Below, one piece after another: positions 2,304 through 28,182 of a stretch of 64,000 nucleotides of DNA. Positions within the stretch are counted from its first letter, which is position 1, and each line of letters begins with the position of its first letter. The stretch comes from Rhodothermales bacterium (GTDB lineage Bacteria > Bacteroidota > Rhodothermia > Rhodothermales > UBA10348), in the NCBI GenBank assembly GCA_017643395.1, contig JAEPNP010000001.1, forward strand, positions 1,739,806 to 1,803,805. The letters run 5' to 3'. The notes beneath the pieces are model-generated. The model was given only the letters and a program-made list of their open reading frames with translations, did no database searches and had not been told where the DNA came from. The position numbers and the translations under genes are program-made.

Positions 2304-2510
2304 ATGACTCGGATCTCCCCTTCAGTATTGGACGTGAGCCGCCAGCCTGCTGGGTCTGCGCGACGCAAGGCATACAAGACGCCGGTGCTCACCGATCACG
2401 GCAATCTGGACCAACTCACAAAGGCCGAGTACGGAGGACTGGACCAACTGCTCTTCGGAAGCCTGTTTGCGATGGCCTCGCCCGGTCTGCCGTCGGCACC
2501 GAGTCGCTAG
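2304..2510 (+). CDS. lasso-peptide-type RiPP precursor (68 aa: 40-aa leader + 28-aa core)
   Basis: MTRISPSVLDVSRQPAGSARRKAYKTPVLTDHGNLDQLTK|AEYGGLDQLLFGSLFAMASPGLPSAPSR. Residues Y24..K40 match the lasso leader motif YxxPxLx3Gx5Tx exactly, with Thr at -2. The core starts at Ala1 and has Asp at position 7. The gene abuts the B2/B1 genes. Start chosen at ATG 2304 inside track ORF 2259..2510. Confidence 0.75.
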   Translation: MTRISPSVLDVSRQPAGSARRKAYKTPVLTDHGNLDQLTKAEYGGLDQLLFGSLFAMASPGLPSAPSR

Positions 2511-2879
2511 TCAGTCCGCGACCTCAAACGGCCGGTAGGTCTCCAGATCAGGCAGATCCCCCAACACAACCCGCCCGCCGAGTTCGACCCAGGCGTGTGA
2601 CTCAAGCCTGCCATTGGTGAGGCGACTTCCAAGGCGGAACCCTGAGGGAATGCCTCGCCGCTTGAGCAGGTGATGTAGCGCAGTGGCTCGGGGCAGGCAG
2701 GCTTGCTGGAGTCCAAGTACCTGGGCAACGTGGTGCACACGGGCGGCAAGGGCCAGGGCGCGCCGAATGTCAGCCTCGCTCGCCTCCGGGGCCTCCCGCG
2801 GCGGAGGCACGGCGCGCCACCCAAGTCGGGCCAGAGACAGTTCGGCCAGGACTTCCACGCGCGCCAGCGTCTGCCTCAC
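2511..2879 (-). CDS. lasso peptide biosynthesis B2 protein (transglutaminase-like leader peptidase)
   Basis: 122 aa. QQACLPRATALHHLLKRRGIPSGFRLGSRL...ESHAWVELGGRVV is the typical Cys...His core of PF13471-type B2 proteins. GTG start at 2879 overlaps the PqqD stop by 4 bp. Confidence 0.85.
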   Translation of the reverse strand: MRQTLARVEVLAELSLARLGWRAVPPPREAPEASEADIRRALALAARVHHVAQVLGLQQACLPRATALHHLLKRRGIPSGFRLGSRLTNGRLESHAWVELGGRVVLGDLPDLETYRPFEVAD

Positions 2880-3145
2880 GCGGCGGCCTGCTCCACGAGA
2901 CCGGCCTCCATCAGCTGGCCCAGCAGCGCGTCCAGGTCCGCGCCGGCTCTGGGGGCTTCGACCTCGTACGACTGGACGATGGCAGCTACCAATTCAGGCC
3001 GTGTGCGCGGGCCCGCGGACAAGAGATCCCAGACCAGGCGCCCGGGACCGGTCAACGAGTAGTACTTGCGGTCAGAGCCGAGGATGACCACCGACTCATC
3101 ATCAGGCCGGCTGGCCACCGGGTGTCCGGCGATCTGTACCGTCAT
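2876..3145 (-). CDS. PqqD-family RiPP recognition element (lasso B1)
   Basis: ORF 2876..3262 trimmed to ATG 3145, which forms an ATGA overlap with the upstream gene's stop. YYSLTGPGRLVWDLLSAGPRTRPELVAAIVQSYEVEAPRAGADLDALLGQLMEAGLV is a PqqD/RRE-like winged-helix sequence. Confidence 0.85.
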   Translation of the reverse strand: MTVQIAGHPVASRPDDESVVILGSDRKYYSLTGPGRLVWDLLSAGPRTRPELVAAIVQSYEVEAPRAGADLDALLGQLMEAGLVEQAAA

Positions 3146-4269
3146 GGGCGGGCGCCTCTCTGTTTCGAAAGCTCCTGAAAGGTACGCCACATCAGGCGCA
3201 CAGGCCGAATCACGCTGAAGACGATCGGCGTGTCCGGATGTAACCAGGGCACCGCGGTCCAATCGCGCGCATTGGGCGTGAAGCCCAGTTGGGCCACTCG
3301 TCGCAGCCGGAGCGTCGGCGGCAGCATGCGGAGACGGTGGGCAGTGAGTGCAAGACCTGTGTGAGGCACCTCAAGAGCCTGCCAGGATCGGGCCACCAGG
3401 CCGCGAAGTTGCCGGTAGCGGTGGTCCAGGGGTCTTCGTACTGCGTCCGGAAGTTCTACTCCCAGATCGGCCAGCATGGCCATGCCACACAGGAAAGACG
3501 CCGCCATTCCGGTACGCGATGCCATTTCGAGCCCGGATTCGAGTGCCCGGGTATCGCGGCTCATGAGGGCCAGGTCCGCCAGCCACTTCAGGGCCAGGAA
3601 CGCATGACCGGTTCCGTGCGTGGCTGCGTGCCACAGCGCGTGGGTTGGATTCAGGGCCGGGATCTTGCGGCCTGAAACCTCAAAACAGGTCCGGTCCGCA
3701 AGGAACTGCTCAGCTGGGGCGTCGAGGCCGGGGAAATCGGCCAGGCGACGGTGTATCTCCAGCCGCACCGCACCGCGGATGTGCGACAGGTGCTTCGGTT
3801 GCAGGCGTGGCTGGTGCTCCGTGTCATAGGCCGGATCCAGGTGGAATCCGGCGGCCTCGGCGGCCCGGCAGGCCTCGTCCATGCTCTGGGGCGGCACAAG
3901 CACATCGAGGTCCATGAAGGGTCGCAGCCGAATATCCCCGTGGTATCTGATGGCGGTGCTCGGTCCCTTGAACTGAAGAAATGGGATGTCGGCGGCGTCC
4001 AGGGCCTGCGCCAGATCCAGCAGCGCTCCGCATGTTTCCATGGACCGGACGGCAGCCAGACTCGCCACTGCACCCACCGCAGTCCGGTCAGGATGATCTT
4101 CGGGAAGCCAGCGCTCGACCCAGCCGGCGAGGCCGTGGTGGGCCGCCAGGGCCACAAGCCGCTTGCCGTTCGCGGGCGGATTGGGTGGGTCCGGCAGGGG
4201 ACCCGTGTCGCCGCGCGACAGGGCTGCCACACCGCGAGCCAGGAATTGCAACACCGGATCGCCGGTCAT
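3142..4269 (-). CDS. nucleotidyltransferase family protein (PF14907/NTP_transf_5-like)
   Basis: 375 aa. ...LRPFMDLDVLVPPQSMDEACRAAEAAGFHLD... and ...HLSHIRGAVRLEIHRRL resemble the uncharacterised nucleotidyltransferases that co-occur with HPr-kinase-like genes in lasso clusters. ATGA overlaps at both ends (4266-4269 and 3142-3145). Confidence 0.8.
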   Translation of the reverse strand: MTGDPVLQFLARGVAALSRGDTGPLPDPPNPPANGKRLVALAAHHGLAGWVERWLPEDHPDRTAVGAVASLAAVRSMETCGALLDLAQALDAADIPFLQFKGPSTAIRYHGDIRLRPFMDLDVLVPPQSMDEACRAAEAAGFHLDPAYDTEHQPRLQPKHLSHIRGAVRLEIHRRLADFPGLDAPAEQFLADRTCFEVSGRKIPALNPTHALWHAATHGTGHAFLALKWLADLALMSRDTRALESGLEMASRTGMAASFLCGMAMLADLGVELPDAVRRPLDHRYRQLRGLVARSWQALEVPHTGLALTAHRLRMLPPTLRLRRVAQLGFTPNARDWTAVPWLHPDTPIVFSVIRPVRLMWRTFQELSKQRGARP

Positions 4270-5096
4270 TGGATCATGCGGTCGAGGATCTCGACGACCT
4301 GCGGGAGGTCGGTCAAGGTGGAACCTCGGCGTAGGCGGCCTATCGGGATCGCGCCCGCCAGGCCTCCCACCCGCTGCAGATGGGCGTCAGCAAGCCCTGA
4401 TACGTCCAGCGAGCGAGGCATATGGGCATGGCGAATCAGTTCCAGTAGGGCCTCGGGCCCCGCCAGCGGCTCCAAAACCACCGGGCCGCCGGCCTCCAGT
4501 ACTGCGATTCCTTTCAGTGTTGCGCCAGACGCGCTGGGTGTAACCCTCTCAAGTTGTTTGAGCGGCCCGCCCGCTCGCACCTTCAACCGGCCGGGCCCAG
4601 GCTGCACACTCCAGCCACCCGTGCCCTCCTCCAGGACACACAGGTCATCAGAGAGAAAGGCCCAGCCCGTGGCGAGTAGAGCTCCCGTCAAGGTTGTCTT
4701 GCCCATCCCTGTGGCTCCTAGCAGGCAGATGGCCAGGCCATGGCGGGAGACGACGTTGCCGTGAAGCACGATTCTCCCGGCCCTGCGCAGGAATAGTCCC
4801 ATGAGTTGTCCGGACAGGCGCTCGCCCGCCGCCGCCGGATCGCCGTCGAGCATCACCACGACTTCGTCCGTCGCCATCCGGTACGTCGCTTCACCCGGCC
4901 ACTGGAAGTACCAGAACTCGTCATCAAGCCGAAAGCTCAGCGGGCCGTCACGCTTCATCCTCGGCACATGGAACCGGCCCGCGCGAACCGTCACCTGCCC
5001 CGTCGTGCCGGTCGGGGCCAGAGAAAACGGAAGGGCCAGGTCGCTCTGGACAACGAGGCCGTATGCTGTGTAAGTGGTCAACCGCGGAAGGGGCAC
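4266..5096 (-). CDS. HPr kinase/phosphorylase-like RiPP kinase
   Basis: The C-terminal about 275 aa of ORF 4266..5750 carry YTAYGLVVQSDLALPF...VLHGNVVSRHGLAICLLGATGMGKTTLTGALLATGWAFLSDDLCVL, a P-loop of HprK-like kinases. The start is uncertain: GTG 5096 or TTG 5081. The first ATG (4958) would delete conserved N-terminal strands. The 5097-5750 extension is Arg/Pro/Gly-rich junk overlapped by the PLD gene. Confidence 0.8.
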   Translation of the reverse strand: MPLPRLTTYTAYGLVVQSDLALPFSLAPTGTTGQVTVRAGRFHVPRMKRDGPLSFRLDDEFWYFQWPGEATYRMATDEVVVMLDGDPAAAGERLSGQLMGLFLRRAGRIVLHGNVVSRHGLAICLLGATGMGKTTLTGALLATGWAFLSDDLCVLEEGTGGWSVQPGPGRLKVRAGGPLKQLERVTPSASGATLKGIAVLEAGGPVVLEPLAGPEALLELIRHAHMPRSLDVSGLADAHLQRVGGLAGAIPIGRLRRGSTLTDLPQVVEILDRMIQ

Positions 5097-5197
5097 AACG
5101 GAGGAGTCGTCAAGATAGTCCCGCTCCCGAAGGCGTTCCTTTAACCCGGGCTGAAGCGCTGGCGCGCGTGGCCGGTCAGATCTCGGTGTCCCGGCGG

Positions 5198-6001
5198 TCA
5201 GAACGGACGTGCTCGTCGCCAATACGCGGAGAACACGGTTCGAAGCTCGTAGACGAGAGCCGGGTCGCTGAAGAACGTGGCGACTTCGGACGCTCTGTCG
5301 GCGGATGACGTGGTAAGGTTGGCGCTGCCGTTCATGGCGGTAGTGTCCGTCACCAGAAACTTGGCGTGCAGGTCGGCAAGCGTGCGAAAGGCGACCCCGG
5401 CGTCTTGCAGCGAACGCACGATATGCCCCGTCAGGTTGTCGCTGCGGAACAGAAGTCGGACCCGTACGCCTCGCCGCGACGCGGCCAGAAGGTCGTCGAA
5501 GACCGGCGGTGGAGCCGGGGAAAGGAACGCCACCGCTGCCAATGCCTCGTAGCGCGCGTCCTGCAGCATCCTTCCCATCTGAAGGTGTATGTCGCGGTCC
5601 ACGAAGTGCCGCGCCGCCGATCCACCCGGTGTAGTCGAACGAAAAGCCTGGATCCGCGCATACACGTTTGAGAGGCCGCATCCGAGTGTGGTGGCCACGC
5701 GCGTCTTGTCCTCGGCGCGCCAGGCGAGCCAGAGCCGGTCCGGTGTCCACTTGATGCGTTTTGTCGCCTCCCGACGACCTCGGCCAAGGGGACCTCGCGG
5801 CCGGTCCGGCGATGTGGAATCGCGGGGCGTGTTTCCATCCAGTGCTCGACGCAGCTCAGGCGCCAGTCGATTGAGGGGGTCGGATTCCACAGTATGCCTC
5901 TGATTTGGGCCGGTCAAAGCGGAAGCGAGGGGCGGCATTCCACAACCGGCAGTTTCGAACGGGTTGTCAGGGTATAGAGGCATCGCCCGGACAGTTCGCA
6001 A
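5198..6001 (-). CDS. phospholipase D-like (single HKD motif) domain protein with an N-terminal extension
   Basis: HKD signature LHAKFLVTDTTAMNGSANLT near the C-terminus. One HKD copy only, which is Nuc-like and suggests a dimer. The N-terminal about 130 aa are unassigned and may include a helix-turn-helix (TTLGCGLSNVYARIQAF). Start not resolved (6001, or internal Met). Confidence 0.7.
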   Translation of the reverse strand: MRTVRAMPLYPDNPFETAGCGMPPLASALTGPNQRHTVESDPLNRLAPELRRALDGNTPRDSTSPDRPRGPLGRGRREATKRIKWTPDRLWLAWRAEDKTRVATTLGCGLSNVYARIQAFRSTTPGGSAARHFVDRDIHLQMGRMLQDARYEALAAVAFLSPAPPPVFDDLLAASRRGVRVRLLFRSDNLTGHIVRSLQDAGVAFRTLADLHAKFLVTDTTAMNGSANLTTSSADRASEVATFFSDPALVYELRTVFSAYWRRARPF

Positions 6002-6123
6002 CGCGGCGTCGCCGATTGGACCCGTTTCGCTGAGGCGCTTGCCGGCGGACTCGGGGTCAATAACGCAAGCCCGCGCCGCCTCGGTGCGTCAGGCGCCGCA
6101 CCGCGCCGCCAGAGAGCCTCGCC

Positions 6124-7680
6124 CTACCGGGGCGTTCGCATGACCACTCCAGTTGTCACGGCGGCTCCAATGGCGAGCCGGTACAGATAGGTGCCCGGCG
6201 GCAACTCCGATCCCTCGATTCGCGTCGCGTGTTCACCGGGAGGCAATCGCCCCAATTCGGACCGCTGCACCACCCTTCCGATGGCATCGAAGACGATCAG
6301 CCGCACGTCGGCCTCGACTTCAACGGTGAAGTCGATACTGGAGGTCGAGCTGAAGGGATTTGGGTAGGCTGCCGACGCAGACAATTCGAAGGTCGGCGGG
6401 ACCACAACCCGCTCGCGGGCTCGAACGTCGGGGCTGAGCAGGTAGGCCGCGTTGGCCCGAATGCGGTCCGTCTGGTCAAAGAGGGTAGCCAGCGCAGCAC
6501 GCGGGTGTTCGCCGGTAGCCACCGAGACCGCGAATACCAGATCCGCAGACGCGCCGGGCGCTAGGTCGAACGGAGTGGTCGAGGCTATCGAGTTATGGAA
6601 ATACCCCGACAGCGAGGCGCCGGCACCGGGGTTTGCCATGGTCCACCCGGAACCTGTGAGCGGATCCCCATCGAACATGTAGCGGGTCGGTGGCCCCGAC
6701 GTGCCCACTCCGTCCCCCTTGCCCCTGATGGCACTGCCGTTCCGCTGTCGCCCATCCATGACCTGATCGGTGCCAAAGTATCCCCAGTCCAACTCGCGGT
6801 GGACCTCTACGACGAAGCTGTGGAGCGACGATGCGTCAGGTGTCGCCGGGGGCTTGAGTCCGGCATCGGAGGGCCAGAGCGTGGCGGGTAGAAGAGCCAT
6901 GCCTACGGCACGACCCTCCACTTCGGGTGCCGACGAATAGAAATAGGCAAGATCGGAGTCTGGTCGCGAGCCCGACCATACGCGTCGATTCTGTACTTCC
7001 ACCTCCGGAGCAAGACCCAGGCGCACGTTCTCCAGAGGAGAGCCGGAGGTGTTCACGAACCGGTATCGGTATAGTGTGGAATTGCCAACCGCCCCGACCC
7101 CGCGAAACGCGTAAGCGGTTACCTGAATGTCGAGTCCGGGCTGCTGCATGTTGTCGTTGTAGGGCCGATCGTGCATGACCCACCAGACGGTTTCATCGCC
7201 AAAGAGCGTGGGCCGGTCTCCTCCCTCCAGATTGTAGTTGCCGGCCAGGCCGTCTCCATCGCTGACGGGTGCGCCGAGCGCGACCGGCCAGTCGCGGATA
7301 TCCTCGGTGGCAACCCCGGTTCGGTCGAACGCCTCCAGGTCGCTTCTGTCGATTCGCCACACCCTGTTCGCCGGGCCACACTCGCCATCCGGCATGTGTC
7401 GGGGGCCCGGCCGATAGTGCTGGGCGGCGCGCCTGAGCGTGTCACCTCTCACGGCCACGAGTTCTGTCATCAAGCATGAAAGAATGGTCTCCGGCTCGAT
7501 ACTGGACAGTTCCAGACCGCCATTGAGAAACAGAGGGCGCGTAGTGCTGACAGGTGCCCTAAGGCTGTTGACGGAAAGCCTGGCCGAACCCGTAAACGGG
7601 GCGGTGCACTCGTCACTGGTCTGGGCGCGGCTGGGGAGGGCAAGGAGGACCAGGGCAAGGCAGCAAGTGAGGAAGCGCAT
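6124..7680 (-). CDS. secreted protein with T9SS C-terminal sorting domain, function unknown
   Basis: ORF trimmed to ATG 7680, giving the signal peptide MRFLTCCLALVLLALPSRAQ. The C-terminus AYPNPFSSTSSIDFTV...GTYLYRLAIG... is a Por/T9SS CTD. Confidence 0.75.
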   Translation of the reverse strand: MRFLTCCLALVLLALPSRAQTSDECTAPFTGSARLSVNSLRAPVSTTRPLFLNGGLELSSIEPETILSCLMTELVAVRGDTLRRAAQHYRPGPRHMPDGECGPANRVWRIDRSDLEAFDRTGVATEDIRDWPVALGAPVSDGDGLAGNYNLEGGDRPTLFGDETVWWVMHDRPYNDNMQQPGLDIQVTAYAFRGVGAVGNSTLYRYRFVNTSGSPLENVRLGLAPEVEVQNRRVWSGSRPDSDLAYFYSSAPEVEGRAVGMALLPATLWPSDAGLKPPATPDASSLHSFVVEVHRELDWGYFGTDQVMDGRQRNGSAIRGKGDGVGTSGPPTRYMFDGDPLTGSGWTMANPGAGASLSGYFHNSIASTTPFDLAPGASADLVFAVSVATGEHPRAALATLFDQTDRIRANAAYLLSPDVRARERVVVPPTFELSASAAYPNPFSSTSSIDFTVEVEADVRLIVFDAIGRVVQRSELGRLPPGEHATRIEGSELPPGTYLYRLAIGAAVTTGVVMRTPR

Positions 7681-7950
7681 AGTCGTAAGGGAAGGGTGGG
7701 AAAACGGTAGTTGCTCCACCCTGCGCATCTCCCGGTCGATGGGCGAGACAGCGCCTCCACACTCCCCGCCGGTCTCTGGCAGGGTGCCGACGGGGATGAC
7801 AGGGCACTCACGGGTGCCCCGGACGCGGCGCTCGCGGGTCCAATCGTCCGTGGCGATGGGCGGTTGCGCTGGCACGCGCCGGGGTAGGATCAACGGCGAA
7901 ACAGAACCGCCGTCGCAAGCCTACACCTGGTCTCATATGTCCATGACCCG

Positions 7951-26832: not shown

Positions 26833-28182
26833 ATGACTGCCATGTACCGCCTTCCTGTCTATGTCCTGGTCGGAGCGCTGCTTGTTGGCTGCGCTCCCTC
26901 AGATGAAGCCCCTCCCGCCGAGGGGCCAGCCACCGTTGAGGTCCGCCAGGAAAACGGAGCGTACCAGCTCTACGTCGACGGAGAGCCCTTCTTTGTAAAC
27001 GGCGCCGGCGTGGAGCGCCAACCCCCGGGGCAGGGAAGCATAGCTGAACTCGCAGCCCGGGGAGCCAACGCCATGCGGACATGGCGAACGGACGAGGCGG
27101 GTCGAACGGGAGGCGAAATCCTTGACGAAGCGCACGAGCACGGACTGATGGTGCTCATGGGTCTGGAGATCGCCAGAGAACGGCCAGGTCAGGGCGTAGG
27201 CGTTTTTGGGTTCGACTACGACGATGAGGAGGCCGTCGCTGCCCAGCTGGAAGCGGTCAGGGAGGAGGTCATGAAGTACAAGGACCATCCCGCCCTGCTG
27301 GCCTGGGGCATCGGAAACGAGCTGAACCTGGAGGCCACCAACCCGAGGGTCTGGAACGCCGTCAACGAAATCTCGGAGATGATCCACGAGATCGATCCCC
27401 ATCACCCGACAACCACGAGCCTCGCCGGGATCGGTCCCGAACTGGTTGTGCAGTTGAACGAGCGGGCTCCGGATCTGGACATCATCAGCATTCAGATGTA
27501 CGCGGACATCATCAACCTGCCGCGATATATCGAAGAGACCGGGCTCGACCGCCCGTATCTGGTCACCGAGTGGGGTGCTACCGGGCACTGGGAGATAGAC
27601 ACTACGCCCTGGGGCGCGTCGATTGAGAACACGTCGTCGGTCAAGGCAGACTTCTATCTTCAGCGCTACCAGGAGGCCATCGCCCCGGATACCACGCTCG
27701 GACTCGGCTCGTTTGTATTCCTGTGGGGACAGAAGCAGGAACGCACTCCAACCTGGTACGGCATGTTCATGCCGACCGGAGAGGCCACCGAGTCCGTGGA
27801 TGTCATGGAATACATCTGGACGGATGAGTGGCCGGAAAACCGGTCCCCGAGGCTTTCAACCGCTTCCATCAACGGGATGACGGCCTACGAGGGCATCTAT
27901 CTCGGAGCCGGAGAGCGGTTCACGGCCACCACGGATGCCGCCGACCCGGATGGAGACGACCTCATGTACCGCTGGGAGATCATGCGAGAGACCACGGAGA
28001 CCTCGACCGGTGGTGACCAGGAGTCTGTTCCGGAGACGCTGTCGGGCCTGGTGGACAACCCGGATTCGCCTTCCGTCTCGGGTACCGCTCCCAGCCAGTC
28101 AGGCGCGTACAGATTGTTCGTCTATGTCTACGACGGTGCCGGAAACGCCGCCCACGCCAACATCCCGTTTTTCGTGCGCTAG
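26833..28182 (+). CDS. clan GH-A (beta/alpha)8 glycoside hydrolase with C-terminal Ig-like domain, lipoprotein (possibly GH158-like endo-beta-1,3-glucanase)
   Basis: ATG 26833 gives [20 protein letters not shown]. Candidate acid/base is [12 protein letters not shown] and candidate nucleophile is [13 protein letters not shown]. The C-terminal beta-rich domain is ...[13 protein letters not shown]...[23 protein letters not shown]. The family guess rests on architecture and neighbours. Confidence 0.6.

Follow-up and report, generated by a model that had tools for sequence, protein, structure and literature searches.

The window, by which we mean the whole stretch of 64,000 nucleotides that was analysed, carries close to its left end a small gene on the forward strand and a series of genes on the reverse strand. 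In order of position, the relevant features are as follows.

2304 to 2510, forward strand: precursor gene A, 68 amino acids followed by TAG, with leader residues 1-40 (2304-2423) and predicted core residues 41-68 (2424-2507)
2373 to 2423, forward strand: leader recognition and cleavage motif YKTPVLTDHGNLDQLTK, of the form YxxPxLx3Gx5Tx with Thr at -2
2511 to 2879, reverse strand: B2, a transglutaminase-like lasso leader peptidase of 122 amino acids (PF13471, E=7e-21; NF033537 lasso_biosyn_B2, E=5.6e-19)
2876 to 3145, reverse strand: B1, a PqqD-like RiPP recognition element (RRE) of 89 amino acids counted from the ATG at 3145 (PF05402, E=3.8e-13)
3142 to 4269, reverse strand: N, an NTP_transf_5 nucleotidyltransferase of the PsmN/LppN type, 375 amino acids (PF14907, E=1.9e-33)
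4266 to 5081, reverse strand: K, an HprK-like P-loop kinase of 271 amino acids with a TTG start, assigned from profile matches, AlphaFold fold and motifs
5198 to 6001, reverse strand: a PLD-like protein (PF13091, with weak similarity to DpdK and DrmC), upstream of K in the same orientation
6124 to 7893, reverse strand: a protein of 589 amino acids with a T9SS sorting tail and no other recognisable part, likewise upstream of K and in its orientation

The last two genes are not conserved in the related loci described below.

Translation of 2304-2510 on the forward strand gives MTRISPSVLDVSRQPAGSARRKAYKTPVLTDHGNLDQLTKAEYGGLDQLLFGSLFAMASPGLPSAPSR*, which is identical to a GenBank hypothetical protein of a Rhodothermales MAG (JJ896_07115, 68 aa). 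A previous reading of this DNA from the sequence alone had described a peptide with an exact YxxPxLx3Gx5Tx leader motif and Thr at -2, and both translation and motif scan reproduce this: residues Y24 to K40 fit with zero mismatches, and the Thr is at -2. In a six-frame scan of the 64-kb window the motif occurs once, in the precursor itself, while 100 Markov-1 randomisations gave a mean of 0.02 matches (0.1 for a relaxed motif); the leader motif is beyond chance. Leader residues 22-40 additionally give a sub-threshold match to NF033528 lasso_cyano, and the codon-position GC content of the gene (0.64/0.52/0.70) resembles that of the neighbouring genes. The predicted released core, AEYGGLDQLLFGSLFAMASPGLPSAPSR, has 28 amino acids, is acidic (pI 4.4), and has a calculated [M+H]+ of 2852.429 in linear form and 2834.418 in dehydrated form (-18 Da). 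Ser residues at core positions 19, 24 and 27 and the C-terminal Arg, which the earlier reading had pointed out, are all found in the translation.

That reading had also placed the peptide beside its processing genes, and profile searches identify them as a PqqD/B1 protein, a B2 protein, an HprK-like kinase and an NTP_transf_5 protein. Each gene of the series K-N-B1-B2 overlaps the next by 4 nt (ATGA at K/N and at N/B1, GTGA at B1/B2), and the series is a translationally coupled operon. The scores of B2 for PF13471 and NF033537 both exceed the cut-offs, and its Cys61 and His95 are invariant among six orthologs. The PF05402 match of B1 is likewise above the cut-off, and among solved structures its closest match is TbiB1 (5v1u, E=5.7e-6). 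N carries a K101-G-P motif and a D120-x-D122 motif that are invariant among seven orthologs; its single-sequence AlphaFold model was unusable (pLDDT 42), and neither N nor B2 has a sequence relative in the PDB. K is the same 271-aa product as NCBI JJ896_07135, for which a PF27840 match is precomputed, and it gives a partial match to TIGR04352 HprK_rel_A (E=1.1e-11). An AlphaFold model of K built from 8 homologs (pLDDT 90.2) matches the HprK/P and PEPCK folds, with TM scores of 0.57-0.61 when normalised to the HprK/P target, and the protein carries a Walker A motif, GATGMGKTT, as well as an SDD motif.

In order to find relatives of the precursor, a word-indexed homology search was run with the peptide alone, and its sole match was the peptide itself. 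Relatives were reached through the neighbours of kinase homologs and then by profile and exhaustive searches, which together define a family of at least 16 distinct sequences; a narrower precursor alignment used as the query returned two genome loci and one short metagenome contig. In the alignment of 16 homologs the leader Y, P, L, G and T are invariant, as are core residues Y3, G4, L6, G12 and F15; core residues 2-3 are a (nearly) invariant Glu-Tyr, and position 19 is Ser or Thr in every homolog (16/16). The C-terminal residue is Arg in 12 cores, Ile in 3 and Ser in 1. One homolog is named by NCBI as a 'lasso RiPP family leader peptide-containing protein'. Between close pairs of precursors pN/pS is 0.19-0.28, and these relatives are under purifying selection.

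The family falls into two subfamilies. Cores of subfamily 1, which come from Rhodothermales where a host is named, follow the pattern [AS]EYGGLDxxLxGSLFAxxSPxxPxxPxR, and those of subfamily 2 follow AEYGDLTTAKYGDLFGSRTI. The precursor relatives keep company with the same kinase K and nucleotidyltransferase N everywhere, and throughout subfamily 1 they are also adjoined by B1 and B2; all-against-all BLAST gives A, K, N, B1 and B2 as the gene set common to the loci. The earlier reading had made its case depend on conservation of the small ORF next to orthologous operons, and the ORF is indeed kept beside them. Judged from its sequence and conservation, the small ORF is a real, conserved RiPP precursor gene with a lasso-type leader.

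Subfamily 2 (L004-L008, L010, L011; for example L007, 8442-12342) retains the full lasso-type leader motif with only K and N adjacent, and no PqqD or B2 protein is found within 10 kb of its precursors. These precursors adjoin a 167-aa protein resembling exosortase X (168.3 bits for NF046081, whose cut-off is 170) and lie in a polysaccharide locus with glycosyltransferases, sulfotransferases and Bac_transf proteins. Two multi-repeat 'leader' proteins were also seen outside the window: P0024 (382 aa) has five tandem lasso-leader-like motifs (PYxxPxLxDHGxLxxxTAE...) followed by a C-terminal coiled-coil-like region, and P0023 (950 aa) was matched in five stretches.

In eight of the nine subfamily-1 loci a large T9SS cargo protein adjoins the precursor or B1. 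The corresponding genes are:

L001, 5536 to 9381, reverse strand: T9SS cargo gene
L002, 5532 to 9377, reverse strand: T9SS cargo gene
L009, 294 to 3191, forward strand: T9SS cargo gene
L012, 7732 to 10938 and 10938 to 16916, forward strand: T9SS cargo genes
L014, 5889 to 9491, forward strand: T9SS cargo gene
L015, 2 to 1177, forward strand: T9SS cargo gene
L016, 103 to 3762, forward strand: T9SS cargo gene
L018, 853 to 3774, forward strand: T9SS cargo gene

The N-terminal domains of these proteins vary (subtilase of the Peptidase_S8 type, Beta_helix, FG-GAP). Their C-termini share an unannotated module of about 480 amino acids that ends in Por_Secre_tail, with 31-49% identity, blastp E-values down to 1e-134 and HMM scores of 500-760 bits; its first ~400 residues lie outside any Pfam family. 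Searches of the window for the module by tblastn, HMM and hhalign matched only the sorting tail of about 80 amino acids. A further neighbor is seen in L012, where a Reg_prop/Y_Y_Y hybrid sensor kinase with an AraC output domain (3049-7293, reverse strand) lies between K-N-B1-B2 and the precursor. The window encodes a 1377-aa protein with Reg_prop, Y_Y_Y, HisKA, HATPase_c and receiver domains (28182-32312, reverse strand) in which no AraC domain was detected and which is 26 kb away; the resemblance to L012 is probably coincidental.

The position of the precursor relative to the operon differs among the loci. In the window its TAG at 2508-2510 directly abuts the TCA at 2511-2513, the reverse complement of the TGA that ends the minus-strand B2 (Transglut_core3) ORF at 2511-2879, exactly as the earlier reading had it. 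Elsewhere the precursor is divergent from K (L001, L002), placed between B2 and K (L009, L018), upstream of K (L016), the first gene of the operon (L014) or 4.7 kb away (L012), and among the loci examined it is convergent to B2 only in this window. No terminator-like structure was found between the convergent genes: the two terminator-like sites detected equal the expectation from shuffled sequence, and RNA folding downstream of either stop is no better than in shuffles (z = -0.71 and +0.65). It is therefore plausible that the 3' ends overlap. No sigma-70 promoter was predicted for the precursor. The sequence TATTTTTG at 2246-2253 on the forward strand, 51 nt upstream of the precursor ATG, matches the Bacteroidetes-type -7 element TAnnTTTG; across the window this element has 5 matches against 4.55 expected, which is the chance level. 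The suggestion that read-through would couple the two genes by antisense RNA thus stands only as to the layout: the stop-to-stop arrangement is real, but in other loci the precursor is divergent, co-directional or 4.7 kb off. Since no other locus examined shows the convergent layout, any antisense effect is incidental and not part of the system.

A lasso peptide is defined by a macrolactam that is closed by an Asn-synthetase-like cyclase. No PF00733 match was found among the cluster genes or among ORFs of at least 450 aa in the window, which reaches 2.3 kb to the left of the precursor. None of the six frames of the 64-kb window or of the 18 fetched loci L001-L018 contains the PP-loop signature SGGxDS, and PF00733 is absent from the precomputed Pfam matches of called genes in L001-L014, L016 and L018; the search in related loci covered about ten independent contexts with up to 10 kb per side. 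The lasso cyclase is absent in cis, here and in about ten related loci. The ring acceptor is not conserved either. Across the 16 cores position 7 is Asp in 9, Glu in 1, Asn in 2, Ser in 2 and Thr in 2, so that 10/16, including the window peptide with its Asp7, have an acidic residue there, and 6/16 have no Asp or Glu at any of positions 7-9; position 1 is once Glu and once Val. Two acceptor-less precursors, P0020 (L014) and P0026 (L018), reside in loci where B1, B2 and K are all present, with N as well in L014. With no accompanying cyclase and an unconserved ring acceptor, the product is most likely linear or at least non-lasso. The 7-residue Ala1-Asp7 macrolactam that had been proposed for this peptide is consequently not supported, nor is the assignment of F11, F15 and M17 as plugs. 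As for the serines proposed as kinase targets, S19 is conserved as Ser or Thr throughout the family, but S24 and S27 vary.

On balance we favour, with somewhat better than even confidence, a five-gene RiPP system in which A together with K-N-B1-B2 makes a linear, or at least non-lasso, phospho-peptide. We infer each chemical step, the modification site, the linearity of the product and its export. B1, as the RRE, would bind the YxxPxL motif of the leader. K would then phosphorylate a conserved hydroxyl of the core, for which the candidates are Ser/Thr19, the only Ser/Thr conserved in all family members, and the invariant Tyr3 near the cleavage site, one residue from the position of the acceptor in the linear polyphosphorylated peptides (LPPs) of Bacillota. 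The choice of acceptor is a guess because neither the C-terminal Ser used by the lasso kinases nor the Ser3 used by LppK is present here. The phosphate may be extended by N, in the way that PsmN adds hexose in pseudomycoidin, and the cysteine protease B2 would cut after Thr-Lys, freeing the 28-aa peptide.

A broader form of this proposal, which we regard as doubtful, is a previously undescribed RiPP class of Rhodothermales/Bacteroidota-type bacteria. In this class the lasso B1/B2 pair would be uncoupled from a cyclase, and a linear, conserved peptide of 20-31 amino acids, modified at the internal Ser/Thr19 or at Tyr3 by K and N, would partner the T9SS-secreted proteins that have the uncharacterised ~400-aa domain in common and whose genes adjoin the precursor in 8 of 9 related loci. 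If this were true, the peptide might serve as a ligand, a cofactor or a surface-attachment handle.

The strongest rival to a linear phospho-peptide holds that the product is non-lasso and yet not simply linear, and that its class is defined by some other modification, for example a cross-link driven by adenylylation or a bond to another molecule; the agent would be N, B2 if its transglutaminase fold worked as a transpeptidase, or the conserved T9SS-secreted partner of the related loci. Conservation of the core far exceeds that of lasso and LPP cores, which suggests that the product is structured or recognised by an enzyme; even for pseudomycoidin and LPPs the reaction catalysed by N is not settled, and the ~480-aa module protein with its T9SS tail recurs beside the subfamily-1 clusters. 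We nevertheless consider this reading unlikely: the module protein is missing from this window, B2 keeps the Cys/His pair of a protease, and Thr(-2), which determines cleavage, is retained in the leader.

Less likely still is a true lasso peptide, in which a remote Asn-synthetase-like cyclase would close the Ala1-Asp7 ring, B1 and B2 would cleave the leader, and K and N would tailor the tail. The leader, B1 and B2 are of the canonical lasso type, lasso clusters of the paeninodin type typically carry K and N as tailoring genes, and the acidic residue at position 7 in most cores and the NCBI name of one homolog fit this view. Against it, A, K, N, B1 and B2 stay tightly linked through several rearrangements and still none of about ten loci supplies a cyclase in cis, more than a third of the cores have no acidic residue in the acceptor region, position 1 can be Glu or Val, and an ABC exporter is absent. 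To our knowledge, the known seven-residue rings (xanthomonins) close on Glu, and a ring closed on Asp7 would be unprecedented. Finally, it is very improbable that the precursor is an unexpressed chance ORF or a decaying remnant whose convergent arrangement with B2 marks a broken cluster, for although no sigma-70-like promoter or terminator was predicted and this is the sole convergent locus and the sole subfamily-1 locus that lacks a T9SS-module neighbour, the ORF is full length with every family-invariant residue, its motif is hardly expected by chance, its relatives are under purifying selection, and all four enzymes are intact with their catalytic motifs.

A linear or at least non-lasso phospho-peptide would matter for how this gene module is understood. 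The lasso leader peptidases B1/B2 have so far been regarded as obligate partners of a cyclase, and in the only described cyclase-less relatives, the LPPs (2026), which were reported as Bacillota-restricted, B2 is replaced by a signal-peptidase-like enzyme. A cyclase-less K-N-B1-B2 operon with its precursor in another phylum would mark the lasso leader/protease module as a portable maturation unit. RODEO-type mining rules that combine a leader motif with B genes can then mislabel non-lasso peptides as lasso peptides, and internal residues may be targets of HprK-type RiPP kinases. The unusual conservation of the core and the recurrent T9SS neighbour speak for a physiological function, possibly one at the cell surface, and not for an antibiotic.

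We compared the cluster with known systems; literature searches turned up nothing relevant on Rhodothermales lasso peptides or on PF14907 RiPPs. Haft's HPr-rel-A system (TIGR04352 HprK_rel_A, TIGR04353 PqqD_rel_X) also pairs an HprK-like kinase with a PqqD-family chaperone, and both models are partially matched here, but the scores fall far under the curated cut-offs (44 against 200 bits and 20 against 35 bits), which indicates a related but distinct family. The canonical split-B lasso system of Thermobaculum terrenum (TbiA/B1/B2/C) is alike in its YxxPxLx3Gx5Tx leader with Thr at -2, in TbiB1, which among solved structures is the nearest relative of our B1, and in a B2 that matches NF033537. 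Unlike the Tbi system, the present one has no cyclase partner, and its ring acceptor is unconserved across the family.

In paeninodin-type lasso clusters the C-terminal Ser of the precursor is (poly)phosphorylated by an HprK-like kinase, and the addition of one or two hexoses to this phosphate in pseudomycoidin depends on the NTP_transf protein PsmN (PMC8498205, PMC6993621). The paeninodin and pseudomycoidin clusters (PadeK, PsmK, PsmN) share with the present cluster a split B1/B2, an HprK-like kinase, an NTP_transf_5 protein, a core beginning with Ala1 and an RRE-dependent leader. They also hold a cyclase C and an ABC exporter D, whereas the present cluster is without both, and their kinase acceptor is a C-terminal Ser, whereas the present peptide ends in Arg.

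The LPP clusters (LppA/K/B/S/D/N) are cyclase-less clusters of Bacillota that encode K, N, an RRE, an SpI-like peptidase and an MsbA exporter, and experiments showed that their product is linear and carries its polyphosphorylation at core Ser3 (Popov et al. 2026, PMC13381572). LppK needs Ser3 and accepts neither Thr nor Tyr at its site, and LPPs were stated to be restricted to Bacillota (Popov et al. 2026, PMC13381572). Several differences separate the two systems. The leader peptidase here is a canonical lasso B2 cysteine protease, whereas in LPP it is the SpI/SipW-like serine peptidase LppS; no signal-peptidase family is present among the Pfam matches of our cluster and its flanking genes, where B2 fills the peptidase role. 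The LPP core cluster has an MsbA-type exporter and the Rhodothermales-type cluster has none, with no ABC transporter in the window cluster or the related loci and an RND pump downstream in L016. The leader is of the lasso type here (G at +10, cleavage after T-K) as opposed to YxxPxVLxHQxIxFETxxS in LPP, so that the two leaders have just YxxP and the Thr in common; at core position 3 there is a Tyr here and the phospho-acceptor Ser in LPP; the core is strongly conserved here and variable in LPP; and the hosts are Rhodothermales in one case and Bacillota in the other.

The LPPs of Bacillota are all the same the closest known system to the Rhodothermales family. Both have an RRE-binding YxxP leader with Thr at the same motif position, an HprK-like kinase, an NTP transferase and a discrete RRE, and both are without a macrolactam cyclase; subfamily 2 resembles LPP also in being embedded in polysaccharide-biosynthesis loci. 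The system thus joins the recently recognised cyclase-less, kinase-tailored, lasso-derived RiPPs and is probably no lasso; most likely, its product is the Rhodothermales counterpart of the linear polyphosphorylated peptides of Bacillota, with the canonical lasso leader peptidase retained.
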